NCBI GenBank assembly: GCA_031409815.1
Contig: JANNXV010000086.1
Span: 1-59,879 of the forward strand
Length of the DNA: 59,879 bases
Direction: 5' to 3'
From: Bacteroidota bacterium
Lineage (GTDB): Bacteria; Bacteroidota; Bacteroidia; AKYH767-A; OLB10
Shown one piece after another: positions 8,683-42,000 of this stretch. The notes below the pieces were generated by a model. The model saw nothing but the letters and a program-made list of their open reading frames with translations, was not told the DNA's origin and searched no databases. Both the position numbers and the translations under genes were made by a program. Position 1 is the stretch's first letter. Every line of letters starts with the position of its first letter.

Positions 8683-8709
8683 TCTTCAATATTTGTATAT
8701 AGAAAAATC

Positions 8710-9003
8710 ATGGCAACTACTAAATCCAAAGCACCTGCTCCTACTAAAAGTACCGCGGCACCAAAGCAAACAGTTTTAACTGGTGATGCAGCATTCGCCT
8801 TTGGCAGAGAGAATTATATCATCATGTTAGTTGGATTGGCAGTTATTATTCTAGGATATATGCTAATGTCAGGCGGGAAGAGCACCGACCCCAATGTTTT
8901 CAATGAAGAAATTTTTAGTTTCAGAAGAATTACACTTGCTCCAATTGTAGTTTTGTTAGGCTATAGCATTGAAATATATGCTATTGTAAAAAAAGCGAAA
9001 TAA
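8710..9003 (+). CDS. DUF3098 family membrane protein
   Basis: FGRENY, GYMLMSGG, FNEEIFSFRRITLAP; usual position between ftsX and uppP. Confidence 0.88.
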   Translation: MATTKSKAPAPTKSTAAPKQTVLTGDAAFAFGRENYIIMLVGLAVIILGYMLMSGGKSTDPNVFNEEIFSFRRITLAPIVVLLGYSIEIYAIVKKAK

Positions 9004-9009
9004 TTCCGA

Positions 9010-10520: not shown

Positions 10521-10548
10521 AAAAAGTCCCAACTATTGTCGGGACTTT
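10521..10548. terminator. Intrinsic terminator hairpin between convergent truB and tRNA-Val
   Basis: aaagtccc-N10-gggacttt inverted repeat preceded by an A tract (U tract on the minus strand). Confidence 0.75.
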
Positions 10549-10549
10549 G

Positions 10550-10624
10550 TGGGAGCTACAGGGTTCGAACCTGTGACCCTCTGCTTGTAAGGCAGATGCT
10601 CTGAACCAGCTGAGCTAAGCTCCC
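10550..10624 (-). tRNA. tRNA-Val (anticodon TAC)
   Basis: Reverse complement GGGAGCTTAGCTCAGCTGGTTCAGAGCATCTGCCTTACAAGCAGAGGGTCACAGGTTCGAACCCTGTAGCTCCCA folds as a cloverleaf; GGTTCGAA T-loop; CCA not encoded. Confidence 0.97.
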
Positions 10625-10668
10625 TTAAACTATTTCTGACCCGTGAGCCAGTTTTTTTATTGGGGGTG

Positions 10669-10699
10669 CAAATATAGACAGGTGAAGCATATATCCAAA
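10669..10699 (-). promoter_or_regulatory. Bacteroidota sigma-A promoter for tRNA-Val
   Basis: TTTG-N19-TATATTTG on the minus strand, a full match to the -33/-7 consensus. Confidence 0.75.
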
Positions 10700-10781
10700 A
10701 AACAAACTGGAATATTTTAAGTATCTATTTTAATGAATGCCTATTAATGCTTTTTGGTGTCCTAAATCGATTATTTATTGT

Positions 10782-25038: not shown

Positions 25039-26079
25039 TTAATTTATTTTCTCTACCAGCATAAAACCATGCTGTACCCCTTTGCAATTATTATAAATTA
25101 AAATGGTGTTGATTGAATTTTTATTCACAGCAGTTTTTAAAACATTCACAGGTATCACTTTACTATTTAAAAGGTAGCAGGAAAGCCATAATGCAAATGA
25201 ACTTGCTGTGGGATATTCACCACATAAATGTTTAAAACGCGCCACTGAAATTTTTTCCAGCAACTGCTCACACGAAAAATAAAAATGATCAAAACGGTTG
25301 TCACCATTTTCTCCTGTAAGAAATATGTCAACCTTTTTATCGGGATGTAAATTCTCTTTCAGAAATAGTTGCAATTGCTCTTGCACTTCAAGAGCATCAT
25401 CAGTATGCAATAATTTTAAAGCCTTCAGTTTGGCAATTGCGCCTTCCTTTTTTCCGCTTGCAATAAACATGGCTACACCTTCGCCTGCAATACTTCCTTT
25501 GGTGTTGGTTTGATATAAATCTAAATTGGAAGTAATGGCTTCTTTATACCAGCCTCTGGCATTTTCTAAATTGAAATTATAAGTGGAAATTTCATCACCA
25601 CCACCGGTCAGATAAACACGTTCAGGATTTTCTTTTATCAGCATCCAGGTATCCAGCAATGCATTTTCAAATGCCAGCCCGCGATGAACATGCGTGATGT
25701 TATAACCAAAATTATTTGCAGTGAGTGCTATTTGTGCTGCAATCGCATTGGTGGTACTTTGAACAAAATTTTTTGGGGTCAATGTGCCTTCTTCAAATTC
25801 GATGATCTGGTTTAAAAATTTAATACAATCATCCATACCTCCATTTGCAGTACCAATGATGATTCCATTTAGTTCAGGAATGTCTTTAATTAAAGTGATT
25901 GCGGCAGCTACTCCCATACGTACTGCTTTTCCCATTCTACGCAAAGTATTTAGCGGGATGTTTGCAATTTTTGGCTCTATTATATGGAGTTTGTTATCAA
26001 CAGAATCAACTACTTCTTCAAGATTTATTTCCGAAAAAGTATGTTGTGGAGAAATGCAAACTGTTTTATGAATATACAC
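25039..26079 (-). CDS. Beta-ketoacyl synthase chain-length factor (copy 1)
   Basis: LRRMGK..RMG, IGTANG, FVQSTTN, AFENALLD, GEYPTAS; no catalytic Cys motif; probable GTG start (VYIHKTVCISP). Confidence 0.85.
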   Translation of the reverse strand: MYIHKTVCISPQHTFSEINLEEVVDSVDNKLHIIEPKIANIPLNTLRRMGKAVRMGVAAAITLIKDIPELNGIIIGTANGGMDDCIKFLNQIIEFEEGTLTPKNFVQSTTNAIAAQIALTANNFGYNITHVHRGLAFENALLDTWMLIKENPERVYLTGGGDEISTYNFNLENARGWYKEAITSNLDLYQTNTKGSIAGEGVAMFIASGKKEGAIAKLKALKLLHTDDALEVQEQLQLFLKENLHPDKKVDIFLTGENGDNRFDHFYFSCEQLLEKISVARFKHLCGEYPTASSFALWLSCYLLNSKVIPVNVLKTAVNKNSINTILIYNNCKGVQHGFMLVEKIN

Positions 26080-26087
26080 GTGACTGA

Positions 26088-27278
26088 TTAGTTTTTCGAA
26101 AAAATTAAAGAACAGCAATTGCCACCAAAACCAAAAGAGTTTGTCATTACATTTTCGTTGATTTGTTTTTGTAAAACGGCTATCGGTCTTAATCCGGTTG
26201 ACTCAACTGGCTCATTAAAATTCAGGCTGGGATATATTTCGTTATTATTTAAAGCAAGAATACTTAGCACCGATTCAATGGAAGCAGCTGCTCCAAGTGT
26301 ATGGCCAATTTTTGATTTTGAAGAGAGGAAAGGAGGGACGTTGCTAAAAATCCGTTGCATGGCTTTTCCTTCTACTTCATCATTATTTTCAGTGCCGGTT
26401 CCATGTGTATTTACAAAACTTATTTGTGAAGATTTCAAATTTGCAACCTGCAAAGCATCGCTCATTGCGCGATAAGGGCCTTCACCATTTTCTGATAATG
26501 ATGAAGGATGAAAAGCATCATTCGCATTTCCATATCCGCTGAGTACAGCAAAGTGTTTTTTATGTTTTGCGTCTTCTTCTTTTTCTAACACTAAAAATGC
26601 AGCACCTTCACCGAGATTTAGACCGTTACGTTCTTTGTCAAATGGTCGACATAATTGTGGAGCGAGGATACCTAAGGCATTAAATCCGTTAATCGTAAAT
26701 TTTGCAAGGCTGTCAACTCCTCCCACAATGGCTCGCTTTGCAAAGCCATGCTTGATTAGTCGTGCACCATAAATAATTGCATTGGCAGATGAGGAACAAG
26801 CGGTATTGATAGAATTAACAATTCCTTTTATTTGGAAACTATTTCGTAAAAACAATGTTGGAGAAGCGGTATCATAAGAGTACAATGAATCTTCTGTGAT
26901 TTGAGATAAATTGTTAGCATCAAGATACAACTCATCCGTAAGGCACATTCCTCCAACAGTGCTTGCGCTTATCAGTGCAGTTTCATAAGATGAAATTTCG
27001 TGCTTAGTGAGTCCGCTGTTTTCAAGGGCTTCGTTAAAAGCGTGAAGTGCCAACAAATCAGTTCGTGTAATTCCTTTCTCCGTTAATGAAAGTTTTTCTT
27101 TTAGTTCTGTTGTGCTAAACTTTATTTCGCCAAATCGAGAAAGCGTGGCGAATTTTGTTTCTAAAAAATCAAGTGTCGAAAGACCGCAAGTGATGTTACG
27201 TAATGCTTCTTGATTTTGGTCAACTGAGTTTCCAATTGCATTTATTACACCCATTCCGGTAATAACAATCCGGCTCAT
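26088..27278 (-). CDS. Beta-ketoacyl-ACP synthase (copy 1 of the polyene-type KS)
   Basis: TACSSS, HGTGT, GHTLGAA (Cys-His-His), NSFGFGG. Confidence 0.92.
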   Translation of the reverse strand: MSRIVITGMGVINAIGNSVDQNQEALRNITCGLSTLDFLETKFATLSRFGEIKFSTTELKEKLSLTEKGITRTDLLALHAFNEALENSGLTKHEISSYETALISASTVGGMCLTDELYLDANNLSQITEDSLYSYDTASPTLFLRNSFQIKGIVNSINTACSSSANAIIYGARLIKHGFAKRAIVGGVDSLAKFTINGFNALGILAPQLCRPFDKERNGLNLGEGAAFLVLEKEEDAKHKKHFAVLSGYGNANDAFHPSSLSENGEGPYRAMSDALQVANLKSSQISFVNTHGTGTENNDEVEGKAMQRIFSNVPPFLSSKSKIGHTLGAAASIESVLSILALNNNEIYPSLNFNEPVESTGLRPIAVLQKQINENVMTNSFGFGGNCCSLIFSKN

Positions 27279-27281
27279 GGA

Positions 27282-27554
27282 TCAGGATGCGATGGGTTTG
27301 GAATGTTGTAAAATATAATCAACAATAGTATTTACATCCACAAAAATTTTCCTCCCTTCTTTAGGATCAGTAATCTTAATGTTGTATTCTCTTTCTAATA
27401 AAACAGCTAACTCCAGTGAATCTATCGAATCCAATCCAAGTCCTTCACCGAAAAGCGGTTGATCATCTCCAATGTCTTCAGGAGTAATTTCCAACAAGTT
27501 CAGGTATTGAATCATGTGTTTTTTAAGCTGTAATTTATGTTGATCTCTATCCAT
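27282..27554 (-). CDS. Acyl carrier protein (copy 1)
   Basis: PLFGEGLGLDSIDSLEL phosphopantetheine motif. Confidence 0.93.
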   Translation of the reverse strand: MDRDQHKLQLKKHMIQYLNLLEITPEDIGDDQPLFGEGLGLDSIDSLELAVLLEREYNIKITDPKEGRKIFVDVNTIVDYILQHSKPIAS

Positions 27555-28831
27555 TATATTAAATTCTTTCTTTTTAATGTGATTAATGCAAGCACTTGTA
27601 ATGAGAATGCGGTAATTAATAATGCGATTATATTGTTGCTAATATCATCCCATTTTGCACCCTGTAAAAATAAGCTGTAATACGATTCGAGGCACCAGTG
27701 CAGCGGTGAGATATTCATAATCAGTTTAAAAGCCTGGGGCATAGCGAACGAAGGAACAAATATGCCCCCTATTGCAGCCAACAAAACCACAGATACTGCT
27801 CCGAAACCATTGCATTGTTCCTGCGTTTGTGCAAAAACACCTATGCACATTGCGTAGCTAATGGCGCACCACCCACACAACAATGTGACTAAAACTAAAC
27901 TTAGGACGTGGTCGGGAATATTTAGTGCAGGTAAATTTATTTTTGGAAACAGCAAAACTCCAATGGAGAAAATAATCAACACTTGTAATAATATCACTCC
28001 GATGTAAACAAATTGTTTAGCTATCAATGAAATTAAATAATTGGCCGGAAGTGTTTTTAATCGGGTAAAACTTCCGCTAAGTTTTTCTTTCACCACGTTT
28101 CCACCTAATGAAATCACGGTAAAAAACATGGCAAATACGGTCCATGCCGGTACATTGTGTTGGGTGGCATTTGGGATATTTCTGCTGCCGTTTATTAATG
28201 CGTAACTTTCAGTGAAGCTGGTTTTGTTGCGGGTCATTTCACTTTCAAAATCGGGCGGCAGTTCTTCTTCGTTCACTGCTTTGTACAATGCTTGAATCAT
28301 GAGTTTGTTTTCAACCAGCATCAAGGCTCCCTGCAATGCGCCACTGATTGATTTGCAATACGACTCCTGCAAAATAGGATGAAAAATTAATTCAGGTGAA
28401 ACAGCAGTCAATTCTGATTTCATGGAATCGCTTTCCAAACCAAAATTTGTTAATGCTTTGGCAGATGTTGACTTTGCTTTCTGATTGAGTTGTGATGAAA
28501 AACAGGTAGGAATAATTAATGCAACCATTGCATCTTTTTCTTTCATATCTTTTGAAACTTGATTGGATGCAACCATGTTTTTTGATTCCACAATATTGAA
28601 CATTTGCAATTTGCGGATGGCAACAATAAATTCTTTAGAGACAACACCTGAATCACTATTAATGAGCAAGAGCGAAATTTTGTTGTCGTTCACCATATTA
28701 AATGCGCTGTTTTGCACGCTTGTAATAACTACCACCAAAATAACAGGCATCAAAAACATCAACGCAAGTCCAACACGATCGCGAACCAGCAAACGATATT
28801 CTTTAATTATTGAAGCGAGCAGAATGTGCAT
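27554..28831 (-). CDS. ABC-2 type transporter permease
   Basis: KEYRLLVRD, PNATQHNVPAW..FAMFF, AAIGG.FVP...MP, SPLHW. Confidence 0.9.
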   Translation of the reverse strand: MHILLASIIKEYRLLVRDRVGLALMFLMPVILVVVITSVQNSAFNMVNDNKISLLLINSDSGVVSKEFIVAIRKLQMFNIVESKNMVASNQVSKDMKEKDAMVALIIPTCFSSQLNQKAKSTSAKALTNFGLESDSMKSELTAVSPELIFHPILQESYCKSISGALQGALMLVENKLMIQALYKAVNEEELPPDFESEMTRNKTSFTESYALINGSRNIPNATQHNVPAWTVFAMFFTVISLGGNVVKEKLSGSFTRLKTLPANYLISLIAKQFVYIGVILLQVLIIFSIGVLLFPKINLPALNIPDHVLSLVLVTLLCGWCAISYAMCIGVFAQTQEQCNGFGAVSVVLLAAIGGIFVPSFAMPQAFKLIMNISPLHWCLESYYSLFLQGAKWDDISNNIIALLITAFSLQVLALITLKRKNLI

Positions 28832-29571
28832 TAGTCGCGGTACGCTTTGCCTGTTAAATTCAAAAACAATTCTTCCAATCCCGTTTTATCATGTTCGATG
28901 AGCAGCTTGTCCAAATCGTCATTTAAAATAATTTTTCCATCGTCAATTAAAGTAATGCGGTTGCATAAATCCTGCGCTTCCTGTAAAAGATGTGAAGTGT
29001 AAATCAATGTGGCACCCTGCGCATTTAATTGTTTCAGGTAGTCGATAATCGCAAAACGTGTTTGCACATCAACACCAACTGTTGGTTCATCGAGAAATAA
29101 AATTTTCGGTTCGTGAATTACACCGATGGCAATGTTTAACCTGCGTTTCATTCCGCCCGAAAAACTTTTAAGGATTTTATTACGTGCATCATTTAAACCT
29201 AATACTGTAAGTAATTCATCGGTCCTTTGTTTTATCTGGTTGCGATTTAATCCTGACCAGGCACCAAAGAATTCCAAATTTTCTATAGGAGTCAACTCAT
29301 CGTAAAAAGCGAAATCCTGTGGTACATAACCAAATAATTTTTTAGCGTTGCGATCTGTGGTTACATCCAATCCAAACAAAGTTACCTTTCCATTTTGTGG
29401 TTTCAGAAGCCCCGTCATGATGGAAATGAGTGTGGTTTTACCTGCACCATTGGGACCAAACAAACCAAAGCGATCACCAGTGGAAATTTTTAATGAAATG
29501 TTTTTAAGACACGTTTCAATATTATTTCCGTACCGAAAATTTATCTGTTCAACGGAAACTGCTGTTTGCAT
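28831..29571 (-). CDS. ABC transporter ATP-binding protein
   Basis: GPNGAGKT, FSGGMKRR, LDEPT, SH switch. Confidence 0.95.
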   Translation of the reverse strand: MQTAVSVEQINFRYGNNIETCLKNISLKISTGDRFGLFGPNGAGKTTLISIMTGLLKPQNGKVTLFGLDVTTDRNAKKLFGYVPQDFAFYDELTPIENLEFFGAWSGLNRNQIKQRTDELLTVLGLNDARNKILKSFSGGMKRRLNIAIGVIHEPKILFLDEPTVGVDVQTRFAIIDYLKQLNAQGATLIYTSHLLQEAQDLCNRITLIDDGKIILNDDLDKLLIEHDKTGLEELFLNLTGKAYRD

Positions 29572-30585
29572 TTAGTTCCATTTAATTTTTGACAAAGCTA
29601 TAAATGCCTGTTTTTCAAATTCGGCTACTTCAAAAAGATAGTTACCCATATCATTAAAATCCTGTTGAGCAGTGATGCGGCCTTTAAATATTCCGGCAGC
29701 CTGTACTGCTGACGAACGCCACAAATCTCCTGCTTTAGTAAACTGCTCTGATATTTTTAACAGTTCATCAATTTTATGATACTTGTATGCTTGTTGCAGA
29801 AATGCAGCGTAAATAAAACGAAATCCTCCACCACCGGTACCTATTTCTTCCTGCATACGAACGAGTTGTGCCAGATAAAGTCCTGCGGTTTTTACTCCTA
29901 ATTTATCGCGCCAGTTGATAATTTTTTTTGCGGTGTAACGGATACCATTCACGCCTACAATCGGCCCTGGTATATGCAACATATCACGAACATTGCGCTT
30001 GATACCTTTGGTAATTGCTTTTCGGATGACATCATCATTCACCGGATTTTTCAGTTGCGGATAATACAACTGACCACGCGGAGCAAGCGCACCTTTTGCA
30101 AAACGTACACGTTGTAATTCATAACTGGTGAGTGTAGTAACTGTTTCCATTACCGGATCACTGATTAAATAATTATCAGCTTCTTTACCATACACCACAA
30201 TATTGTGTGCATTAAAATGAAAGCGGTATTCTTTTGGAAAATAGGTGAGGTAGTAGACTCCTACTTGTGCACCAACAGGTTGATTATTAAGTAAACATTC
30301 ATCTAAGAAGATCTGTGCTTTTTCTGGTGATGAAAATTTTTTTCTCATCACCGGAATACTTAACGAGTCACAGGTGCGTTTAAAAATCAAACCCGGCATG
30401 GTGCGATAGGAAAATGCAGGGCCGTTATTTATTTTTAGTAAAGGAATGTAAATGAAAAATAATCCCGACCCGATGCCAAACGCCAAGGGTTCAGTCATTT
30501 CATTTACACCAATATGATGAAGTAAATTGGTGGTAACTCCATTTTCACAGTGAGCTGTTTGTAGGTGATTAAATTCAGTCTTCAT
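29572..30585 (-). CDS. BtrH N-terminal / C39-like peptidase domain protein
   Basis: HCENG (Cys), FNAHN (His), ISDP; QEEIGTGGGGFR; a type I recall from flexirubin clusters. Confidence 0.82.
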   Translation of the reverse strand: MKTEFNHLQTAHCENGVTTNLLHHIGVNEMTEPLAFGIGSGLFFIYIPLLKINNGPAFSYRTMPGLIFKRTCDSLSIPVMRKKFSSPEKAQIFLDECLLNNQPVGAQVGVYYLTYFPKEYRFHFNAHNIVVYGKEADNYLISDPVMETVTTLTSYELQRVRFAKGALAPRGQLYYPQLKNPVNDDVIRKAITKGIKRNVRDMLHIPGPIVGVNGIRYTAKKIINWRDKLGVKTAGLYLAQLVRMQEEIGTGGGGFRFIYAAFLQQAYKYHKIDELLKISEQFTKAGDLWRSSAVQAAGIFKGRITAQQDFNDMGNYLFEVAEFEKQAFIALSKIKWN

Positions 30586-30982
30586 TAATTCTCAAACTTT
30601 TTAAATCATCAATGCTCACTTCAAATGTGTCAGCATACTTCTTCAGTTTTTTATCAGAAAGCTTTCTAAAGATGTTTGGATGAATGTGTCGTTTAATCTG
30701 CCATTGCCAGAATCCGGTGTAAGCAGCAATCGTAGGAAAATCCATCAGGCGCAATTCCATGAAAAATAAAACAGGACTTGCATCCCCGTTGTTTACTTTT
30801 TGTTTTGCATCATTGATACGCTGCTCAATATCCTTCCATGCAATATTTAATGCATCGGCTTTTACTTGCCAGCCTCTGCTTAAACCGGTTGTGTAATTTC
30901 CGGATGCATCTTCGCCATACACTACATCTCTTGTGAACTTGTCGAGCACTGATGGATCTTGTGGAAGATCTTTAATTTTCAT
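30575..30982 (-). CDS. Conserved hypothetical protein of dar/flexirubin clusters
   Basis: DLPQD, S.GW.VK, SPV.FFME..LMD, WQIKRH..P..F..LS motifs. Confidence 0.75.
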   Translation of the reverse strand: MKIKDLPQDPSVLDKFTRDVVYGEDASGNYTTGLSRGWQVKADALNIAWKDIEQRINDAKQKVNNGDASPVLFFMELRLMDFPTIAAYTGFWQWQIKRHIHPNIFRKLSDKKLKKYADTFEVSIDDLKSLRINED

Positions 30983-31043
30983 TTGTCAAAAGTATTATGA
31001 AAACTGTATTATCGGATTGGTAAAAATAAATTGGTGATAAAGT

Positions 31044-31913
31044 TTATTGTATGGATAAATGAGATTTTTTATCTGAAGTAATTATTTCCTTTGCTATTTG
31101 ATCAAGCCAGGATGCAAAGGTGTTGGCCGAAGACTCATGACTAATTGCAAGTTCCAACACATCTCTGGCACTTAGGTTGCACCAAACATTGCATGCTAAT
31201 TCTGTGTATTGGTTTAAGCAATTGGTTAGTGAGCGTGATTTGGCGACCATTGCGACTCCAATGCCTAATTGTTTACGATGTTTCCCTGCCAATGAAAAGA
31301 ATGATTTGTATATATTTACATCACAACCTCCAACATACACAGAGGCAATACCAACTCCTCTCCACAAATCAGGATGTCGTAAAGATGAAAACTTTTTAAT
31401 GTTTTCTGCTACAGCATTCACATCACCTTTACAACTGTACCAAAGGCTTCTGCCTAATCCTTGATCAAAAGCCGGAAAATCTTTTTCGGTAACAAAACTT
31501 TGTGTCTCTTGATTTTTTATTGAGGTTCTGTATTTGAAAATACCGGAATAGAAACCACATCCATCCCAAACTCTGCTTTGCATCATTGGATGAATGGTAT
31601 TCAAAAAGGATAATGCTGAAATGGAATCTGCTGCTATTGCCCAACCAAGACCAATATGAACATGACTTGCTTGATTAGTAGTAATCTTAACAAATTGATT
31701 CCATTTTTTTATCGAGTGATTTTGAATAAAATCATTTTGTGCAAGTGCCATAGAAGCTCCTTCATAAGCAACCGAACGAAATTCGGCATCGGTGCTTTCA
31801 AGATAATGGAATAACTCATCAAAATCAGGCAGCTTACTTGCAAAATGTTTTGCTTCCTGAAAAATAGTTCGAATAATTTCTATTCTCAGTTGTACACTAC
31901 TCTTGTTATTCAT
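31044..31913 (-). CDS. DUF1702 family protein (enediyne biosynthesis UnbL/E3-like)
   Basis: AYEGASMALA, HVHIGLGWAIA, DGCGFY.G, DQGLGRSLWY, DLWRGVGIA..Y.GG match my recollection of the DUF1702 consensus. Confidence 0.8.
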   Translation of the reverse strand: MNNKSSVQLRIEIIRTIFQEAKHFASKLPDFDELFHYLESTDAEFRSVAYEGASMALAQNDFIQNHSIKKWNQFVKITTNQASHVHIGLGWAIAADSISALSFLNTIHPMMQSRVWDGCGFYSGIFKYRTSIKNQETQSFVTEKDFPAFDQGLGRSLWYSCKGDVNAVAENIKKFSSLRHPDLWRGVGIASVYVGGCDVNIYKSFFSLAGKHRKQLGIGVAMVAKSRSLTNCLNQYTELACNVWCNLSARDVLELAISHESSANTFASWLDQIAKEIITSDKKSHLSIQ

Positions 31914-31930
31914 TTTTGTTTTTGGGCTCG

Positions 31931-33622
31931 CTATCCATTTGCCATAACTTCTTTCTTATTGTAGAACCACATTACATCAACATCCTTTGCAATTGATTCA
32001 TCAGGCAATAATCCATTTATATGTTGGCTTAAATCAGCACCATCGCTAAGCGATATGGCATAAGGATCAACACGCATATCAACAGGTGTTCCCTTAACTT
32101 GTGTGCTCACCAATCGGAAGATGGCAGCAGCAATTTTCTCCAGCTTCTCCATATTCATTGCAATTTGCGCAACAATTTTTTCCCCGTGTTGTACTTCAAT
32201 ACCCTGTTGAAATTCGCGCAGGTATGTCACATCAAAAGGATCAATGTAATGATTAGAGAAAATTTCGGTTTCGAAAGGCTTCCAGGCAAGAAAAAGATCC
32301 TGCATGGTTTTATTTAACCTTCCGAATTTTTTACCTAAGCTATCCGTTGAAGAGAAAAGTTCTTTTAATACTTTTAAATTGGTGAAAGCTTTATTGGTAA
32401 ACAGTAATGAAGGAATAGACCAATAGATGGCCCAGTCCCAGAAAATTTTAATTACCATAATCTGGGTGTTGCCCATTAATGTGTATTTGTTCTGATAAAT
32501 GGGAATCCAGTTTTGCACGTGTGAAAGATGTGCCTGCTCGTAAATACCAGCACGCATGCTAATGTCTTCTCCATCCAAATCACGTAGTATTAAATCTGAT
32601 AGCCAGGTGTTGGCCAATGAAATAAAATCTGAACCGGGCGAATATAATGGATCAAGAAATGCACCTGACTCGCCAACCACACCCCAACGTTCTTCAGAAT
32701 ACAAACGGCCTGAATCATGTGCAAAATGTTTGAGCACCCTAAAATCTAACAAGCCATCGCCTTCACCAAATGGCTTTAGCATTTTATAGCAAAGCGGTTC
32801 GTTTTTCTCGAGCCAGTTTAAAGCTTTATCATATTTATTTATTTCATCAAACGGATGAATGGCAGGGTCTGCAACAATTCCAATGCTGGTGTTTTTTGAT
32901 CCCAATGGGATAATCCATACCCAATAGCCCGAATCCATAAAATGAACAGTACTTAAATATCTTAAACGTGGTTCGAGATGATGTTTCCATTCCGGATTGT
33001 CCGACCAGTCATCAATATCCACAATTCCTTTTAAACGCCACCACACAGCATTTACATGGTGCTCCATCGGTTTTTGAAATTGCAGTTTGCGTTTGAGTAA
33101 ACTGCCACGCCCGGTTGCATCAGCCACCCATTTGCCTGTTACTTTTACTTCTTGTTCATCTTTAAGATAAATTACTTCGTGTCCGCTGGTGGAAAAATTT
33201 ACTTCTTTGGCACGTGCACCCAGAATCAATATTGCTCCTAACTCCTGAGCATGTTTGGCCAGATAATTTTCCAATGTTCCTCTATCTAATTGATGACTGG
33301 GTACGGGAAGTTTTAAACGTGGGCCCAATTCAACTCTATTAGAGATTTCTTCTTTGTGATTGGTTTTGAAAAAAAATCGTAATCCATGTTTAGGCAATTC
33401 ATGTGCTTCAAGATAATCTTTAAGACCCAATACTTCACGCATATAATGTGTGGCAAGTTCCACCGTTGATTCACCCACTTTGTGCGCAGCTGTTGAAGCT
33501 TCACTGGCACGGCTTTCCAAAATCAAAATGGAGATTTCCGGTTTTGCACGTTTTAACTGAATAGCTAAGGTAAGGCCGGCAAGGCCGCCACCTGGTATTA
33601 TGACATCGTATGGTGTTTGCAT
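31931..33622 (-). CDS. Flavin-dependent halogenase
   Basis: GGGLAG FAD motif, HKVGESTVE, LPKHGLRFFF (candidate catalytic Lys), WVWIIP halogenase motif, FLDPLYSPG. Confidence 0.8.
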   Translation of the reverse strand: MQTPYDVIIPGGGLAGLTLAIQLKRAKPEISILILESRASEASTAAHKVGESTVELATHYMREVLGLKDYLEAHELPKHGLRFFFKTNHKEEISNRVELGPRLKLPVPSHQLDRGTLENYLAKHAQELGAILILGARAKEVNFSTSGHEVIYLKDEQEVKVTGKWVADATGRGSLLKRKLQFQKPMEHHVNAVWWRLKGIVDIDDWSDNPEWKHHLEPRLRYLSTVHFMDSGYWVWIIPLGSKNTSIGIVADPAIHPFDEINKYDKALNWLEKNEPLCYKMLKPFGEGDGLLDFRVLKHFAHDSGRLYSEERWGVVGESGAFLDPLYSPGSDFISLANTWLSDLILRDLDGEDISMRAGIYEQAHLSHVQNWIPIYQNKYTLMGNTQIMVIKIFWDWAIYWSIPSLLFTNKAFTNLKVLKELFSSTDSLGKKFGRLNKTMQDLFLAWKPFETEIFSNHYIDPFDVTYLREFQQGIEVQHGEKIVAQIAMNMEKLEKIAAAIFRLVSTQVKGTPVDMRVDPYAISLSDGADLSQHINGLLPDESIAKDVDVMWFYNKKEVMANG

Positions 33623-33673
33623 GAAAATAATTATCGAACTATGAGAACAACTCTATGAACACTGTTAACATTC

Positions 33674-34819
33674 TTAAACTACCGTAAGTAGGGCATACAT
33701 ATAACTGAATCGTGAACTTTCGGGAACCAATAAAAATATTCGCTCGCCTCTTTTTAATTTGCCACTATTGAATAATTCTTCCACCATCATATAAATAGAT
33801 CCTGCTCCAACATTTCCAATGGTTGAAAGATTGGTAAACCATTTCTCTTGAGGAATATGCATATTATTTGCATCTAGCTTTTCAGCAATTTTATTTCTAA
33901 AAAATTCGCTGCTAAGGTGAGGAAGGAAATAATCTATGTCGGATACATTGATATTATATTTTTCAAACAGCGGTTTAAACATATTGTATCCTAATTCAAC
34001 GATATTTTCGCCAAGTAATTTTATATCTTGCTTGATGGCAAGAATAGAATGGTCGATAATTTCTGTTGACGAATAATCCATGTAACTTTTTAGTACTCCA
34101 CCTTCGAGTTTTTCTGCGGCCATATACATGCAAGGTTCAACCAAATGAGCATATGATACCCCATCTAATCCATCAATGCGCAAGCTTATTCCGTTTTCAT
34201 TCTTCTTGTCATTTAACTGAAGAGCTCCGGCACCATCGCTCAGCATCCAACGTAAAAATTCTTTATCAAATGTGATAAACGGATTTTTTTCTGCTGCCTC
34301 CAACTTGTTTGCTTCTTCTTCAAAAACATCTGAACGCAGAATGCGTGATAGTCTTTCGGAGCCTGAGGCTACTGCATTTTTTGCTTGGCCTAATTGAACC
34401 GACATCCATGCATATTTTAGTGCATGCATACCTGAACAACATACACCGGAAGGAGAAACCACTTCAATGGCGTTTGCTTCGGGTAACCAACCATGAACCA
34501 TCACAGCATGAGAAGGCATCATCTGATCGGGTGATGAGGTTCCACAACATAGAAGATCCATGGCTTTTATTTTATCTGGATTGTTATCCATCAGATTTCT
34601 GATTGCCAATGCAACCATTTGTGAATTGGTATGGGTGGAAATACCGTTTTTGTCGATGGCATAATAGCGAGACTTGATACCGTTATTACGCAACACAATG
34701 CGTCTTGATTTGGATGATAAATGATGAATCATACCCAAATAATCTTCCATTTCATCATTCGAAACCGGTTGGTTGGGTAAAAATTTTGCCGCTTTTGTTA
34801 TAAAAACTTCGTTTGTCAT
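33674..34819 (-). CDS. darB: StlD/DarB family beta-ketosynthase III
   Basis: FLPN.PVSN.EME..LG, GVCCSG catalytic Cys, FLRWMLSDGAGA, LPHLSS, GNVGA, VPESSRF. Confidence 0.9.
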   Translation of the reverse strand: MTNEVFITKAAKFLPNQPVSNDEMEDYLGMIHHLSSKSRRIVLRNNGIKSRYYAIDKNGISTHTNSQMVALAIRNLMDNNPDKIKAMDLLCCGTSSPDQMMPSHAVMVHGWLPEANAIEVVSPSGVCCSGMHALKYAWMSVQLGQAKNAVASGSERLSRILRSDVFEEEANKLEAAEKNPFITFDKEFLRWMLSDGAGALQLNDKKNENGISLRIDGLDGVSYAHLVEPCMYMAAEKLEGGVLKSYMDYSSTEIIDHSILAIKQDIKLLGENIVELGYNMFKPLFEKYNINVSDIDYFLPHLSSEFFRNKIAEKLDANNMHIPQEKWFTNLSTIGNVGAGSIYMMVEELFNSGKLKRGERIFLLVPESSRFSYMYALLTVV

Positions 34820-34820
34820 T

Positions 34821-35726
34821 CTAATTGTAATTTACTCCTGAATAATAGATTTTGTTTTTACTGATTTGATTGCCTGAAAACGGCCTGATGAAAATATTAT
34901 AAATTAACAACACTACAGGTGCAACTATAAATAAGGCAAATAATAAATAGTATTTGAAGATTTGCAGCCATAATGATCTGTTGCTCTTTTTGATGATAAC
35001 GCGTGCCCATATTTTAAACAATACAGATGCCCTGGTTTCGATAAACATCAGATTGGTATGTACTTCTACAGCATTCATTGTCAGTAATCGTTCTTGTAAG
35101 TCTTGCCAGTTATTATTTTCCAATGACTTTACTACTTCAAATCCAAACGCTCGGCTACCTGCAACATCAGTTTCGTTAATTCCCGGACGCGGAAAAATAC
35201 CAAGAAAATGGTCACGTTTGCCGGTAAACATCCAATATTGAATAGTAATAGCGCTTACAAAATTATTATGGCGGTCGGCCAGCACAATATTGGCAAGTAA
35301 ATTGGCTCCGCTTTCTTTCAATAGTTTTTTAACTTGTTCCTGTGAGTTGATCCACATGTTTCGCGAACCAATCAGTGTAATTACCGGAGTGTTAGCTAAT
35401 CTATTTTTAAAGTCTGAATGCTGAAGCAATGAAGAAATAGGGATGCTTGGAGATAAAAACCAGGGTTGAAAAGCAATTACAATAAGATCGTAATGAGTTC
35501 TCTTAAAATCAGGTTTTATTAATTCGGTGGCTATACCTAATACACTCTCAGGCATGGCATCAAAAAATGCTTTGCCTGACCATGGAAAGGGAAAATCGTT
35601 TGTCGGTTGAATCTTCATCCATTCGATCTCACAATTGTTTTCCATTAATGGTGAAATAAAATTTTCAGCAATTTTTTTTAGCTGACCTGATTGAGAATAA
35701 TATGCTACAAGAATATTTTTATTCAT
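34821..35726 (-). CDS. darA: Dialkylresorcinol-condensing enzyme
   Basis: LVAYYSQSGQL, FPFPW...FFDAMPES, QPWFLSPSIP, GSRNMW, DRH.N.VS; adjacent to darB. Confidence 0.9.
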   Translation of the reverse strand: MNKNILVAYYSQSGQLKKIAENFISPLMENNCEIEWMKIQPTNDFPFPWSGKAFFDAMPESVLGIATELIKPDFKRTHYDLIVIAFQPWFLSPSIPISSLLQHSDFKNRLANTPVITLIGSRNMWINSQEQVKKLLKESGANLLANIVLADRHNNFVSAITIQYWMFTGKRDHFLGIFPRPGINETDVAGSRAFGFEVVKSLENNNWQDLQERLLTMNAVEVHTNLMFIETRASVLFKIWARVIIKKSNRSLWLQIFKYYLLFALFIVAPVVLLIYNIFIRPFSGNQISKNKIYYSGVNYN

Positions 35727-35733
35727 TTTAATC

Positions 35734-36243
35734 TCAATTAGCAATCAGTGACTTTAAAGCGGTTGAATTTTTTGAATAATCCAATATCACCTTTTGTAAT
35801 TCGGGAGTGAATTGAGGATAGGCCTTTTTTACTATTTCGGCATCTTTATTAATACTCTCATGGTATTTTACCACTTCAGGACAATGCTCTTGAATGATCA
35901 ATCTTAAAAATCGAAATTCAGCATTATTATTTTCTTTAACGATTGCTTCTTCTAATAAAACTCTTCCTTCTTTAAAAAGATCCATTTTACGCTTAACGGT
36001 TTTGATAAGATCTGATTTTTTCATCATCAATGCGCCAGTAAATGCTTTATCATTATCTGATGAAATGGGTTTTAATGATTGTAGTGATATATTAATTTTT
36101 ACGGTATCATTTCCCGAAAGGGCATCATAATAACTTGTGATATTTTTATTTTTAAAGTTAGGTGGAGCGGTGTATTGTTGAAAGCCATAGGCATGAAAAA
36201 TTATGCAGTAAGAGAAAATAAAGAAGTAAAATATTTTTTTCAT
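35734..36243 (-). CDS. Hypothetical secreted helical protein
   Basis: Signal peptide; GALMMKK, FKEG..LLE.AI, N.EFRFLRL.IQE..P. Confidence 0.7.
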   Translation of the reverse strand: MKKIFYFFIFSYCIIFHAYGFQQYTAPPNFKNKNITSYYDALSGNDTVKINISLQSLKPISSDNDKAFTGALMMKKSDLIKTVKRKMDLFKEGRVLLEEAIVKENNNAEFRFLRLIIQEHCPEVVKYHESINKDAEIVKKAYPQFTPELQKVILDYSKNSTALKSLIAN

Positions 36244-36276
36244 TTTTAACAAATTGATGCAAGCACAAAATGGGTA

Positions 36277-37521
36277 TCAGGAAGGAAAAGCAGGTTGCGT
36301 AATCCTTATGGTTTGAGCCAATGCTTTTAAAATTGTTTTATGCTTCTTTACAATCGGGTTGGTTTCATCCCAAACATATCCTGCCAGAATGGAACAAATT
36401 TGTTGTTTTATACTAGCCTTAATATCTGGAGCTAAAATGATCGTTTGAATATCTCCATTATACCATCCCAAAACAAATGATCGGAAAACATCAATACCAC
36501 TTCTTAAAACATTTTCATATTCATTGAGCCAATCTACGGGTTCACCATTTAATTGTCGGTGAGCCAATTTTGCTGCCAGCAAACCTGAGCCGGTTGCAAG
36601 TGTTACACCTGACGAAAAAATCGGATCCAGAAACTCGGTGCTGTTTCCACACAAAACATATCCTTCACCGAATAATTGTTTAGCACGAACCGCATAGCCA
36701 AGTATCTTTTTTGGTTCAAACACTAGTTTTTCTTCGCTAAAGCGTCCGTTTAAATCTTTAAAATTTCTGATATGATTTATAAACCCTGCACCATTGTTGG
36801 CTGCAAATTCTTCAACTAGAGATACTTCTCCAACAACACCAACAGACGTTGTTTGATCAGAAAATGGTATCGCCCAAATCCAAGCAGTATGGTTATTGAA
36901 CGAGTGAACAAATATGTTTTCTCCTGCTTTGCTTGTCCTTTTATTATCTTCAATATGTGCAAATACTGCTCCTCTGGGTGGGGTGTTAACGGGCTCTTCT
37001 AAATTAAAAAATTTGGGCAACACCCTTCCGTAACCACTGGCATCCAGAATAAATTTCGCCTCAACTGAATGTGTGTTTCCTTCAGCATCGCTGTAAGTAA
37101 CCAGTTGTTTTTCTTTAGAACAATTTACGCTCTTAACTTCACATTTGAATTTAACAGTAACACCTTGTTCAATAGCAGTATTGATTAAAATATGGTCGAA
37201 CTCGGCACGCTTAACCTGCCAGGTCCAGGTCCATCCTTTGGTAAACTGATCAGCAAAAAGAAATTCGATTTTTTGTTCACCTTTATAAAAAGCGGCTCCG
37301 GTTTTTAATTGGAAACCGTGCTTTTTCACGTTCTCTAAAAAGCCAACTTCTTCTAAATGAGCCATGCATTGTGGCAATAGACTTTCACCAATTACAAATC
37401 TGGGGAATTGCTCTTTTTCAAGAACGAGCACTTTGTAATTATTTTTATTCAGATAGGCAGCAGCTACAGCACCGGCTGGTCCTGCTCCAATAACTAAAAT
37501 GTCAACGTTTTCTGTTCGCAT
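36277..37521 (-). CDS. FAD-dependent oxidoreductase / halogenase-like (flexirubin cluster type)
   Basis: GAGPAG, FPRFVIGESLLP, FQLKTGA.F, DASGYGR, WIWAIP, EFLDPIFSSG. Confidence 0.85.
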   Translation of the reverse strand: MRTENVDILVIGAGPAGAVAAAYLNKNNYKVLVLEKEQFPRFVIGESLLPQCMAHLEEVGFLENVKKHGFQLKTGAAFYKGEQKIEFLFADQFTKGWTWTWQVKRAEFDHILINTAIEQGVTVKFKCEVKSVNCSKEKQLVTYSDAEGNTHSVEAKFILDASGYGRVLPKFFNLEEPVNTPPRGAVFAHIEDNKRTSKAGENIFVHSFNNHTAWIWAIPFSDQTTSVGVVGEVSLVEEFAANNGAGFINHIRNFKDLNGRFSEEKLVFEPKKILGYAVRAKQLFGEGYVLCGNSTEFLDPIFSSGVTLATGSGLLAAKLAHRQLNGEPVDWLNEYENVLRSGIDVFRSFVLGWYNGDIQTIILAPDIKASIKQQICSILAGYVWDETNPIVKKHKTILKALAQTIRITQPAFPS

Positions 37522-39050
37522 GATTTTTTTACTTTTTCAATAACCTTGTGACGGTCGACAAACTCAAATGCAGTTACAAATGCACCAACAGAAACTCCCA
37601 TTACACCATGTAAGCCAACATTTTGGCCGGTAAGAAACAAATTAGGGATTCTGGTTCTGGGACTAATAAATGATTTTGAAGGATTAGTACTGTCCTTCAA
37701 AATGCCATATAAAGAACCATCGTAATTGCCGGTGTAATCACGGTTTGTTAAAGGTGTAGAAGTATAAATGTTTTTTATTTTTTTGCGAATGTCAGGAAAT
37801 ACCTCTTCAACTTTTTTTAGCAGTTTTTCTGCACGATCATTCTTAAATTCCTGATATTTGGTACCACGGTTTTCAGGATGGGCTATGGTGTTATGTGAAT
37901 TTTCCCATTGCTTTGTTTCTTCAATATTCATGTAAGTCATTACGGCCATTGAGTCGGCATACTTCTCACTTTTGGTATTTGCAGGTGTGCAGATGAAAAA
38001 ACCGTCTGGCCATTCAGTAGGATTATAATCGATGCCAGACCAAACATCATCTTTATTGTATTGATAAATATTATAGTTAAGATATTCAAAACTTTCAGGA
38101 TGAAACGTGATATAAATAGTGAAACAAGATATGGTGTTTGTAACAGTTCGGACCCGTTTTTTATATGCAGGTAAAAATCTTTTTTCGCCAAAAACATCGA
38201 TGGTAGCGGCAGGATGCATATTGGAAATAAAATTTTTCCCCCGAACCAACTCACCACTTTCTAAAAGCAGCTCTTTTATGTTCCCATCCTCATAATAGTT
38301 GGCGCCAATTACATTTTTTCTTTTGTGTATTTCGCCACCCAAATCTCTTATTTGCTGGCACATAATTTTAGCAAGTTGCGAGCCGCCATCCACAATTTTA
38401 TAAGAGCCCATTATGTAGCTGTTTAATATAAGCGCATGCACATAAAAGGGAGTTTTGTCTTTAACTCCCGCATACAATGGATTGTTACCAGCTAATACAT
38501 TTCTAAGCCTTTCGTTTTTTGTAATTGAAGCAATGTATTCATATGCATTCAATTCGCGAGTTTCAAACGCACCTACATAATTTGGATTGATGTCGGGATC
38601 TAAATTATAAAGTGGAAATTTTAAGCAGGTTTCCTGTACAAAATCACAAAACTCCAGAATGGCTTTTTCTTCTTCCGGAAAATCCTGTATCAGAAATTTC
38701 TTAAAATTTTCATAACCATGTCCATGCTTATACTCTTTGCCATCCGCAAAACGAATCAGATCATGAAAATCATCATTCATTCGTTTAAGTTTCAATTTCC
38801 CAATCAAACCAAAATATTGAAATATGCTCCAAAGGGTTTGCCCTTCGTCTAGGCTACCTATATAGTGAACTCCTGTGTCGAAAACCGATTTATCGCGACT
38901 GAAAACCTGAACATTGCCTCCTATCTGATTGTTTTTGTCGAGCACAATAACGCTATGACCTTCAGCTGCCAGAATATAAGCGCAAGCAAGCGCTCCGAAA
39001 CCTCCTCCGGCAAAAACAAAGTCAAATTCCTTATCGGTTATCTTACTCAT
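37494..39050 (-). CDS. Phytoene desaturase / retinol saturase family FAD oxidoreductase
   Basis: GGGFGA, FDTGVHYIG, GGSQLA, STPLT.RDY, GSLYG, NLFLTGQ...HG. Confidence 0.85.
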   Translation of the reverse strand: MSKITDKEFDFVFAGGGFGALACAYILAAEGHSVIVLDKNNQIGGNVQVFSRDKSVFDTGVHYIGSLDEGQTLWSIFQYFGLIGKLKLKRMNDDFHDLIRFADGKEYKHGHGYENFKKFLIQDFPEEEKAILEFCDFVQETCLKFPLYNLDPDINPNYVGAFETRELNAYEYIASITKNERLRNVLAGNNPLYAGVKDKTPFYVHALILNSYIMGSYKIVDGGSQLAKIMCQQIRDLGGEIHKRKNVIGANYYEDGNIKELLLESGELVRGKNFISNMHPAATIDVFGEKRFLPAYKKRVRTVTNTISCFTIYITFHPESFEYLNYNIYQYNKDDVWSGIDYNPTEWPDGFFICTPANTKSEKYADSMAVMTYMNIEETKQWENSHNTIAHPENRGTKYQEFKNDRAEKLLKKVEEVFPDIRKKIKNIYTSTPLTNRDYTGNYDGSLYGILKDSTNPSKSFISPRTRIPNLFLTGQNVGLHGVMGVSVGAFVTAFEFVDRHKVIEKVKKSCEQKTLTF

Positions 39051-42000
39051 GATTTTTTTAGAATGAACAATACATTGGAGGTTTTTTTAGAATGTTCGGT
39101 CATTTCTAAATCCAGATTATTGTTTACTGCAAAGGACTTAATAAAATCCGAGGAGAAAAAATGAAAATCCTCTTCTTTTTTATTAAATCGGAATATTTTG
39201 GTAGAGAGCTGTTCGGTTTTTTTTGTGTTTTTGTGTCTGTTCTTCAAATCAGCTATTCCATCTCTGATAAAAACGATTCCATTTGGGTTTAATCCCGCTA
39301 GGCATTTGTTTAAGACCAATAGCTGCTTTTCTTCGGATAAGTAATGTAAAACATCATTTAAGAAGATCACATCCTGATTTTTTATTTCATACAGATTGAT
39401 GTCAGCATGTTCAAAGTTTAGATTCTCGTTTTTATCATACACATTTTGTGCAATTGCAATTTTATCTTCGTCATAATCCACTCCAACAATGTTTCTGTTT
39501 TCGTTTTTATAGTGAAGATAGAGTGGTAAAAAACCATAGCCACAACCGATGTCTAGAATATTAATTCGATCAGCAATTTGTTCATTATACGATTCATAAT
39601 TTTTTGATTCCAGTTTCCATTTAATACGCAAATACCATTCGAGTACTGGTCCCTTAAAAATATAGTTTTGATAAACCCTGTTCCATAAATAAGCAGCTGT
39701 TTCTCGCTCCTCTTTAAAAATGTTATGCTGTGCTTTAAAATATTTTGAGATGCTTTTTGTTCGTTCAGAATAGGTTGCACCCCAACTTGCATCCGCTGCT
39801 TTAATTCGGGGAAGCACTTTTAAATGCGTACTTCCTTTGTGTACATAAAAATCGTTTTTTGGTAAAACATCCGAAATGCCATGAAGCAAAACCGGAGTGA
39901 TGTCGAGATTTAATTCTTGCGCAAGATAAAATGCTCCTTTATGAAAGCGCAATAATTTACCATCGGGAGAGCGTGTGCCTTCCGGAAAAACAGCTATGGA
40001 ATAACCAGCAGCTATTCTTTCACGCACAATGTCAAGATTAGACTCTGCTCTGGTTTCTGAATAAATATATCCTACATAACGCACAAACGGGCCAAACAAA
40101 GGAGAACGATACACCCACTCTTTTACCATGATGATAATTTTGGGATGCAACATCATCACTAAAAGTATATCGAGAAAAGAAGAATGATTTGCGATAATGA
40201 TGGATGGATTTTTAATGTCAAGATTTTCTTTATTGAAAAATCTTTTGCGCACATGCACTCCCGCATACATCACACTGCCGGCAAAAAGCGACATGAGTGT
40301 GTTTAAGATTCTCCGCTTCATTGTCCGTGGTAATGGTATCAGCATCAGCACTGCAAAAATTAAATACATCAATACACAGCCACAAACGAAATAGGCAAAA
40401 TCAAAGCACGAAATCAGGAATGGGAAAAATGTGATTGGAGCTCTTTTCTTTTCAATCCTACGCTGAACAAAATAGTTGAATATAAAAGGTTGAAAGAGTA
40501 ACGAAATAATTAAGATGACAGCAATTCCCAAAACGCTTATCAAAGCGATGCCATGTATAGCAGGGTGTTTTGCAAAAAATAAAACGCCTGTTCCGATAAG
40601 AGTTGTGAGGGCAGATAACAGTATGGCCAGGTTGCCTGAGGCAATTGCATCTTTCTTGTATTTATATTTATTAAGCAATCCGTCATTCACAAAAATGCTG
40701 AAGTCGTCACCCAAACCAAAAATAAAAGTGGCAATAACAATGTTTACAAAATTGAATTTGATTCCTGTGAGCGCACAAATACCAAGTATCCAAACCCAGC
40801 TAACAGCCATTGGTAAAAACGCAAGCAATGCTAATTCTATTCTTCCATAAATGAGCAACAGTGTAAAAAAAACAGCGAGTGATGAAACCCAGAAAATGTA
40901 GTTGAAATCGTTCTTTACAATGTCGAGCAATGATGTTGCCATCTCTGACATTTCTAGTAATTCAGCTCCTTTAATTTTTCTTAATTCAGCTTTTACCTGT
41001 GCTAAGTTTTTATTCTCAACAACCACTGTTGTGATCAAGGTTGTTTTGTTGCCGCTTTGTTCAATCAGATTGTCAAGACCAAGTGCGCTGACAAGTGAAT
41101 CGCTTTGGAGAGTGGCTTCCTTATGGTCAATCCAGTTTTTAAATACTTCAAAAGCTTTGGTGTCAAAACCAAGACCGTCAGCCGTTTTATCCAATAAGTT
41201 AATCGTGCCTGCTTTTTTGTTTTGCCAGTAATTATTCCAGGCAATTTCTCGCTCATGTTTTATTGATTCAGGAATTTGAAATTGTGCTACTGAAAGAAAA
41301 CTTTTTACTTCACCGGTGTTTTTTAGTTGTTTAACTTTTTCAAATACACGATAATTATTTTCATTGGCAGTTTGATTATCACCTGCTGCAAAAACATAAA
41401 TTTTCTTTTCACTACGCGGATTAATTCCGGTTAGTTCAACTTCTTTGTCTTTCAAGTCTGAAGTATGATAACTTAAATTTTCCAATTGGCTATCGAACTC
41501 AGTATTGTTTGCGTATTGTAAAAAAATAAATGTGAGTATGATGATAATTACCATCGCAACTCCGCGAAAATATTTCGGGAACAAACGAATTTTTAACAAG
41601 CGTTCCTCTTCCTGAATGGTAGTGTAATCGAACTTGAATATTTTTAAAAGGATAGGTAAAAAACAAATGGTGAAAAATGCAGCTCCGGTCAAGCTCAATG
41701 CGCCAAACAAACCAAAATCCTGCAATATGGCAGAATTGGTAAACAACAATGCAATGAATGCAATAACGGTTGTAAAACTTCCGGTAAGTAAAGGAGCACT
41801 GATGTCCTTTATTGTTGTTGAAATGGAACGTGTATGTTTAAGGTGGGTGAAAAAGTGGAACGAAAAATCGAGCATAATACCAAACAGTATTGAACCACAC
41901 GCTATCGAAATACCTGAGATCGCGGGTTTTATTAATCCGATAATTCCAGATGCAAACAATCCACCAAACATTGCAGGGAGAATAAAGTAAATTGGGATAA

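Follow-up and report, generated by a model that had tools for sequence, protein, structure and literature searches.

The results reported here concern two adjacent genes on the minus strand of the 59,879-nucleotide contig JANNXV010000086.1 of a Bacteroidota bacterium (assembly GCA_031409815.1), the whole of which we call the window. The first gene encodes a 563-residue flavin-dependent halogenase (Hal563) and the second a 289-residue protein of the DUF1702 family, to which the enediyne protein E3/UnbL also belongs. With modest confidence, we favor the view that the two proteins are subunits of an accessory halogenase tailoring a pigment of the flexirubin pathway, within whose gene cluster they lie. 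What is new here is a flavin-dependent halogenase with a dedicated partner of the E3 family; both protein families were already known. The pair and its spacer are as follows.

31931-33622, minus strand: Hal563, predicted flavin-dependent halogenase of variant B type, proposed catalytic subunit (563 aa; motifs, Pfam and fold)
31914-31930, minus strand: spacer between the Hal563 and DUF1702 genes (17 nt, read from the sequence)
31044-31913, minus strand: halogenase-linked DUF1702 protein, divergent member of the E3/UnbL family with a predicted helical-repeat fold, proposed auxiliary subunit (289 aa; PF08012)

The stop codon of Hal563 (TAG) is followed by the spacer and then by the ATG of the DUF1702 open reading frame (ORF), and the pair is placed between darB, 51 nt upstream, and darG, 61 nt downstream, all on the minus strand and within an array of genes with short gaps running from 39050 down to 25039. 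An initial annotation of the window had described a halogenase and a DUF1702 protein 17 bp apart just downstream of darB, and the ORF coordinates agree with this exactly; the Pfam search that it had proposed for the smaller protein returned PF08012 with 177.6 bits, the cut-off being 25 (E 3.7e-52). Its further point, that the pair splits the usual order of the dar genes, is likewise borne out, since in a genome of the same genus (G002), which is without the pair, darB runs straight into darG. When 28000-39500 was scanned for promoters and terminators, these were no more frequent than in shuffled sequences, and no such element was found in the spacers.

Linkage of the halogenase and DUF1702 genes

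Among 61 relatives (the window's own genome included; G035, flagged unpublished, is one of those having neither gene), DUF1702 is present in three (G000, G019 and G057), and Hal563 orthologues occur in exactly these three, adjacent and in the same order; the orthologues are 87% and 68% identical, and no other halogenase-like match exceeds 30% identity. Of 401 evenly sampled Bacteroidota genomes with a completeness of 90% or more, four gave PF08012 matches; Hal563 orthologues, taken at E ≤ 1e-40, are encoded in two of those (G000 and G422) and in none of the others, and the remaining two DUF1702 genomes (G278 and G192) have PKSE cassettes without Hal563. DUF1702 has two contexts in these samples, and Hal563 accompanies only the non-enediyne one. 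The pair is widespread but rare, occurring in approximately 0.5-5% of the sampled genomes.

The linkage was examined further in a survey of loci that took one genome per species. A query with the single protein gave no related loci, whereas a query with an alignment of 43 relatives of the window's DUF1702 protein (alignment A1) gave 599 pattern matches, from which at least 536 stretches encoding relatives were obtained and the best 80 kept; having been picked by similarity to the window's protein, these loci describe its clade and not the whole family. All 80 derive from metagenome-assembled genomes of Bacteroidota (Bacteroidia, Chitinophagaceae, Ferruginibacter, Chryseolinea, Saprospiraceae, Cyclobacteriaceae and others). 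By tblastn, 70 of the 80 have a Hal563 homologue (45-87% identity) in the same orientation and under 400 nt upstream, and two more have one approximately 0.4 and 0.9 kb upstream, so that the genes are neighbors in 72 of the 77 loci with room for a halogenase, three loci being without such room. The other five have no Hal563 in the locus, and all five of their genomes encode a 61-67% identical Hal563 elsewhere, in one of them (G465) at the opposite end of the same dar cluster. The co-occurrence in other genomes that the initial annotation had wished to see surveyed is thus found, and in both directions.

Genes of the dar group or other flexirubin-cluster genes are present in 70 of the best 80 loci. 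The position of the pair varies (after darB, after darA, before darG, before darB, after a ketosynthase (KS)-like gene, or before a block of ketoreductase, acyl carrier protein (ACP) and KS genes), and it usually abuts darA, darB, darG or the ACP-KS block. The pair had been put forward as the best candidate for a new pathway; instead of being unique to the window, it recurs as an accessory cassette in the flexirubin loci of Bacteroidota. We found no published description of it in the literature searched, outside which most subscription journals lie, and public records name the proteins 'DUF1702 family protein', 'enediyne biosynthesis protein E3', 'flavin-dependent dehydrogenase' and 'NAD(P)/FAD-dependent oxidoreductase'.

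The two ORFs are also closely coupled. In the 56 loci in which both are complete and of normal length, with start codons placed by a heuristic, they overlap or abut in 28, are separated by 1-20 nt in 13 and by 21-120 nt in 14, and lie farther apart in one. Moreover, the two proteins occur as natural fusions. A search for longer proteins revealed P0123 (839 aa, on three contigs) and P0124 (868 aa), in both of which the halves are joined by a short linker, and a query of the full library with P0123 added P0245 (848 aa), P0246 (849 aa), P0256 (900 aa) and a junction-spanning fragment, P0311, with Pfam confirming the assignments. There are thus at least five full-length fusions, always with an N-terminal halogenase and a C-terminal DUF1702 part. 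Because the five are mutually 29-61% identical and are spread over different subclades in a FastTree of the DUF1702 domain (read without support values), several independent fusion events are suggested by the sequences; in the same tree, read in the same way, P0256 groups on the canonical-E3 side. One further candidate, locus L031, was rejected as a fusion, its translation having a stop between the halogenase and DUF1702 genes. Other Hal563-like proteins (P0306, P0346 and P0375) have a different fusion partner, namely an SCP2 sterol-transfer domain, an N-terminal DUF3050 or an O-methyltransferase, which suggests a wider family of halogenases with added partner domains; the SCP2 domain, a lipid-binding one, occupies the same C-terminal place of a Hal563-like protein as that held by DUF1702 in the fusions.

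In 57 locus-paired sequences (1596 pairs), the mean pairwise identity is 39% for DUF1702 and 59% for Hal563, the latter being the more conserved in 99.7% of the pairs. A complex prediction for Hal563 and DUF1702, using the alignment of Hal563 orthologues described below (A2) and A1, returned ipSAE values of 0.00 and 0.00 in runs made without controls, values that bear on binding in neither direction. That the two genes form a functional unit, as originally assumed, is well founded in their strict co-occurrence, overlapping ORFs and natural fusions. From the co-occurrence in both directions, the ORF overlap and the recurrent colinear fusions, we infer that the two proteins work together, most simply as a complex.

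Families and predicted folds of the two proteins

Hal563 has the motifs by which flavin-dependent halogenases are defined, namely GGGLAG (G11-G16), WVWIIP (W234-P239) and FxDPxxSxG (F322-G330), and also contains HKVGES. The Pfam model Trp_halogenase matches it with 44 bits against a cut-off of 21. The 35 orthologues of alignment A2, in which column identity averages 66%, all retain K48, K78, W234, W236, I238, F322, D324, P325, S328 and G330; P239 is conserved in at least 90%, and the Trp-rich C-terminal domain is largely invariant as well. The lysine K78, which lies in LPKHG beyond the GES segment and is present in all 35, is matched in the alignment by FPK(K) of PltA and Mpy16, and we take the lysine of PltA there to be catalytic. 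The closest solved relatives by sequence are PltA (8e-17), Mpy16, ChlB4, CtcP, Bmp2, CmlS and CndH. A Foldseek search with the AlphaFold2 model (pLDDT 90.3) listed CtcP first (2.3e-22), followed by PltA, ChlB4, PltM, Mpy16, CmlS, FasV, Bmp2, CndH, MalA' and RadH; the first kynurenine monooxygenase appears at rank 46, all entries above it being halogenases except one unannotated Cytophaga flavoprotein. Because the motifs are invariant and the best matches in both sequence and fold are solved halogenases, Hal563 is by all available tests a variant-B flavin-dependent halogenase with a predicted activity, in keeping with what had been proposed for the larger protein.

The AlphaFold2 model of the DUF1702 protein (pLDDT 93, pTM 0.91) is all-alpha with 15 helices, and its sequence has five GxG motifs, at 88, 118, 152, 186 and 217, with a period of approximately 30-34 residues; 23 columns are invariant across the 43 relatives of A1. 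Foldseek against the PDB gave nothing at E ≤ 0.001 (TM approximately 0.2), and in a wide VIA-align search the best Z was 7.5, with designed helical repeats and MA3/HEAT-like domains that represent a helical-repeat background. The 43 members of A1 searched against Pfam at E ≤ 5 showed no second family such as HEAT, and a search of the ESM Atlas with PF08012 excluded gave one unnamed cluster at 0.88, to be taken as a lead only. A fucose lectin considered as a relative was discarded, the PDB sequence profile having given only short repeat-like matches regarded as spurious.

Canonical E3s were represented by 25 sequences (alignment A3), comprising actinomycete proteins, the Haliangium 'UnbL' and the cassette protein of G278, named from Changchengzhania lutea. 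Profile comparison of A1 with A3 by hhalign (probability 100, E 9e-60, 23% identity; the alignment begins at canonical position 47), together with the PF08012 match, places the small protein in the E3/UnbL family, as had been recognized from its motifs; pairwise identities to canonical E3s are approximately 23-27%. The residues invariant in the 25 canonical proteins (R24, F26, H105, Y107, R119, H147, Y150 and Q244) are, however, not retained as a set. The N-terminal segment of approximately 45 residues that bears R24 and F26 is absent from all 43 halogenase-linked members; H147 is replaced by Tyr in 39, Phe in three and Ser in one (Tyr122 in the window's protein), and by Tyr or Phe in six of six fused forms; H105 is kept in 37 of 43, yet is Gln81 in the window's protein; and Y107, R119, Y150 and Q244 are replaced in the clade. 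Conserved in 43 of 43 are E75, D142, R181, W184 and R253, and D208 is kept in 37. A quick maximum-likelihood tree separates the 45 halogenase-linked sequences, as a single group with a long branch (length 1.11; SH-aLRT 100), from the neighboring canonical E3s. Judged from these comparisons, the window's DUF1702 protein is a member of a derived, distinct clade of the E3/UnbL family.

Enediyne-type PKSE cassettes were observed in two Bacteroidota genomes, G278 (C1:4003000-4022900, locus L094) and G192 (C92:6300-21366, locus L096). Each contains a DUF1702 protein, scoring 298 bits in G278 and only 49.7 bits in G192, alongside a PKSE-like synthase of 2010 or 2122 aa, a protein of the FG-GAP/UnbV_ASPIC type and a membrane protein resembling RnfD/NqrB. 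In the window itself there are no PKSE, thioesterase, UnbV or UnbU cassette genes, and when a real PKSE cassette was used to query the genome to which the window belongs (95.6% complete), no PKSE-type multidomain ORF and no UnbU match were detected, UnbV giving just partial FG-GAP matches on other contigs. The earlier statement that PksE, UnbV and UnbU are lacking therefore holds for the window and, genome-wide, for a PKSE-type ORF and UnbU, and is qualified for UnbV by those partial matches.

The flexirubin cluster of the window

The neighboring genes on which the assignment of the cluster depends, all on the minus strand, are listed below.

36277-37521, minus strand: Hal414, second canonical flavin-dependent halogenase by sequence (414 aa; Trp_halogenase 95.6 bits; CmlS model 161 bits, under the equivalog cut-off)
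34821-35744, minus strand: putative darA (position and synteny with darB; weak flavodoxin-type matches; no curated family above cut-off)
33674-34819, minus strand: darB, upstream neighbor of the pair (NF053539 resorcinol_DarB, 611 bits against 550)
30575-30982, minus strand: darG, downstream neighbor of the pair (NF053545 flexirubin_DarG, 177.5 bits against 170)
29572-30585, minus strand: darH, BtrH-related acyltransferase (NF053550, 464 bits against 300; Pfam BtrH_N and DUF4872)

Homologues of the putative darA adjoin darB in related loci as well, and an ABC ATPase gene follows darH, its product scoring below the curated cut-off, unlike those of darB, darG and darH. Besides DarB, DarG and DarH, the curated flexirubin models for the tyrosine ammonia-lyase FlxA (790 bits against 700) and for FlxB (378.8 against 340) are passed in the one array, and the window also encodes ketosynthases and an ACP. 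Since FlxA, FlxB, DarB, DarG, DarH, ketosynthases and an ACP are all present, the window contains a genuine flexirubin cluster, and the description of the host operon as a polyene/resorcinol pigment cluster is upheld.

Hal414, which lies in the same operon and went unmentioned in the initial annotation, has the motifs K73, WIWAIP at 214 and FLDPIFSSG at 297, and is 24% identical to Hal563. Its orthologues are kept at 78% identity in the same-genus genomes G001 and G002, both without the pair, and it is therefore regarded as the conserved core halogenase of the cluster; G002 has, together with Hal414, a CrtI-like gene, darA, darH, ABC genes, ACP and KS genes. In G019, of another genus in the same family, the gene arrangement is identical to that of the window, and the dar genes of the window are closer to those of G019 than to those of G002 (DarB, 90% and 73%; ABC ATPase, 86% and 75%; permease, 83% and 69%), which suggests that the block carrying the pair (25039-35744 compared) may have been transferred or recombined.

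Two further features of the window were noted. At the head of the minus-strand array, 39047-42874 is a 1275-aa ORF with MMPL/RND transporter segments, a PlsC-type acyltransferase and an S-adenosylmethionine-dependent methyltransferase. On the plus strand, between flxA and flxB, are ORFs of 473 aa (44638-46059) and 1318 aa (46095-50051), whose only family match is the type IX secretion C-terminal sorting domain.

Proposed role of the pair and comparison with known systems

In the accessory halogenase that we propose, Hal563 would serve as the catalytic subunit, with its reduced flavin adenine dinucleotide (FAD) reacting with dioxygen and halide to form hypohalous acid that would be steered to the substrate by Lys78. 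The DUF1702 protein would be a dedicated helical-repeat partner bound to Hal563 near its C-terminus, most likely holding or presenting a hydrophobic substrate, or otherwise enabling the halogenase, rather than performing redox chemistry itself. Such a partner role is suggested by the repeat fold, the absence of an enzyme-like match in the searches above, the faster evolution of DUF1702 and the occurrence of SCP2 in the same C-terminal place, all of which point to the binding or presenting of a substrate, with catalysis being compatible with the same evidence. The substrate would be a pigment intermediate, either the dialkylresorcinol half or a dar-associated acyl-ACP stage, or alternatively the aryl-polyene ring. 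In view of the gene position, the target is probably the dialkylresorcinol part, and the expected product would be a flexirubin-type pigment having an extra halogen beyond that introduced by Hal414. Flexirubins are known to differ in their chlorination (PMC3992019), which speaks in favor of the proposal.

Several observations weigh against this proposal. In G461-G463, the halogenase is unlinked from DUF1702 and sits among unrelated genes, and in G057 (locus L099, C14:20000-39900, pair at 8629-11183) the two ORFs overlap by 4 nt with no pigment genes within approximately 8 kb, their neighbors encoding a type IX secretion system protein, an M16 peptidase and a TPR protein. Several of the fusions are each known from just one metagenome contig, and some may have arisen artificially through assembly errors or frameshifts. 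No product is known for the pair, and we know of no characterized flavin-dependent halogenase that needs such a partner. The DUF1702 protein keeps the invariant polar residues E51, D117, R155, R179 and R227, and for that reason may be catalytic. Finally, the chlorination published for flexirubins is placed on the polyene ring (PMC3992019), where it could come from Hal414 alone, the simpler candidate.

The invariant polar residues also lead to the alternative that survives best, namely that the two proteins are sequential enzymes, Hal563 halogenating an intermediate whose halogenated form the DUF1702 protein would then convert, for instance eliminating hydrogen halide to introduce an extra unsaturation, so that the halogenation would be cryptic. 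This we regard as possible, and as appreciably less probable than a two-subunit halogenase. Descent from the E3/UnbL family is in its favor, and the chemistry is attractive because the pathway of E3 itself is reported to pass through iodinated polyenes, and the paper of Gui et al. 2024 names a diiodotetrayne intermediate in its title. Within the calicheamicin cassette, CalU15 has been proposed, without proof, to form acetylenic bonds, according to a review (PMC8341276). We take CalU15 to be an E3/UnbL homologue. Also consistent with a separate enzymatic step is the four-gene operon darB-DUF1702-darG-darH found between trigger factor and RNase G in locus L020 (8840-12299), in which DUF1702 stands among dar genes without an adjacent halogenase; by tblastn, the same order is seen in L024, L036 and L060, and the genomes of all four loci carry darA and the halogenase gene on contigs other than that of the operon. 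On the opposing side are the missing E3 N-terminal segment, the replacement of His147 in 43 of 43 members and six of six fused forms, the loss of Y107, R119, Y150 and Q244, and a predicted fold that amounts to a simple helical repeat and gave no enzyme-like match; in addition, alkynes and other products of elimination are not known to us from flexirubins. The loss of the canonical residues weakens direct transfer from E3 in either direction, and nothing in the analysis shows the desaturation step with which the pair had initially been credited.

It would be a bolder proposition, and one we think unlikely, that DUF1702 is the missing halogen-handling component of polyene pathways, with Hal563 halogenating a polyene or resorcinol precursor, the DUF1702 protein eliminating hydrogen halide or otherwise transforming the halide to add unsaturation, and canonical E3 doing the equivalent on iodinated polyenes; were it true, the natural halogenase-DUF1702 fusions would be a one-polypeptide model of that chemistry.

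It is similarly doubtful that Hal563, although halogenase-like, acts in vivo as a flavin monooxygenase or oxidoreductase and, with DUF1702, modifies the pigment in some other way than by halogenation. The modest Trp_halogenase score comes mainly from the FAD-binding N-terminus, geranylgeranyl-reductase and hydroxylase models match too (all under their cut-offs), and the dehydrogenase and oxidoreductase names in public records would accord with such a function; however, Lys78, WxWxI and FxDPxxSxG are invariant in the 35 orthologues, and the best matches in sequence and structure are solved halogenases. Adjacency without functional meaning, whether through insertion of both genes as a mobile unit or because DUF1702 is a remnant decaying next to a halogenase that works independently, might account for the patchy distribution (three of 61 relatives, two of 401 genomes of the phylum), the same-genus genomes without the pair and the DUF1702 identity of only 52% between G000 and G019, where neighbors reach 73-90%, yet it is most improbable, being already contradicted by the intact DUF1702 ORF in 56 of 56 loci with both ORFs complete and in the length range, the 23 invariant columns, the strict co-occurrence in both directions and the recurrent fusions.

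If the two-subunit halogenase is real, it would be a flavin-dependent halogenase dependent on a partner protein, and undescribed halogenated flexirubin-type pigments are predicted. The pair is also of interest for E3/UnbL, which has been described as one of three genes of unknown function conserved in the enediyne cassette (PMC9992847), in that proteins of its sister clade are linked one-to-one, and repeatedly fused, to a recognizable enzyme in a non-toxic, colored and genetically tractable pigment pathway, so that the function of DUF1702 becomes testable by simple means. The expectation that the pair could reveal that function is sound insofar as it offers a practical entry point; transfer of a result to enediyne E3 is uncertain, because the clade lacks the E3 N-terminal segment and has Tyr, Phe or Ser at the invariant His of E3.

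The pair is worth comparing with several known systems. ArcA of Azoarcus sp. BH72 is encoded by a halogenase gene inside a xanthomonadin/arcuflavin-type pigment cluster (PMC3949708, Table 1), and both it and the pair thus place a halogenase in an aryl-polyene/dialkylresorcinol pigment cluster; the likeness is taken from the gene list only, and that list, as far as the published table extends, includes no DUF1702 gene (PMC3949708). Hal414 is of the same operon and enzyme class as Hal563, and both are candidates for the known flexirubin-type chlorination, but Hal414 has 414 and not 563 residues, is without a partner protein and is present in relatives that do not have the pair. Enediyne E3 and the window's DUF1702 protein share the GxG repeats and the residues E75, D142, R181, W184 and R253 (E51, D117, R155, W158 and R227 here), and both belong to pathways building a conjugated polyene, whereas their partners are PKSE, UnbV and UnbU for canonical E3 and a flavin-dependent halogenase with type II flexirubin genes here. 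With the variant-B halogenases PltA, Mpy16, Bmp2, CndH, CmlS, CtcP and PltM, Hal563 has in common the FAD fold, GxGxxG, the presumed catalytic Lys, WxWxIP and FxxPxxSxG, and with CmlS and CtcP also a length of approximately 560 residues and a helical C-terminal extension, although it is just 18-22% identical to the solved enzymes. To our knowledge, none of these has a comparable partner; Hal563 combines its own strongly conserved Trp-rich C-terminal domain with a strictly co-occurring, and sometimes fused, DUF1702 protein.

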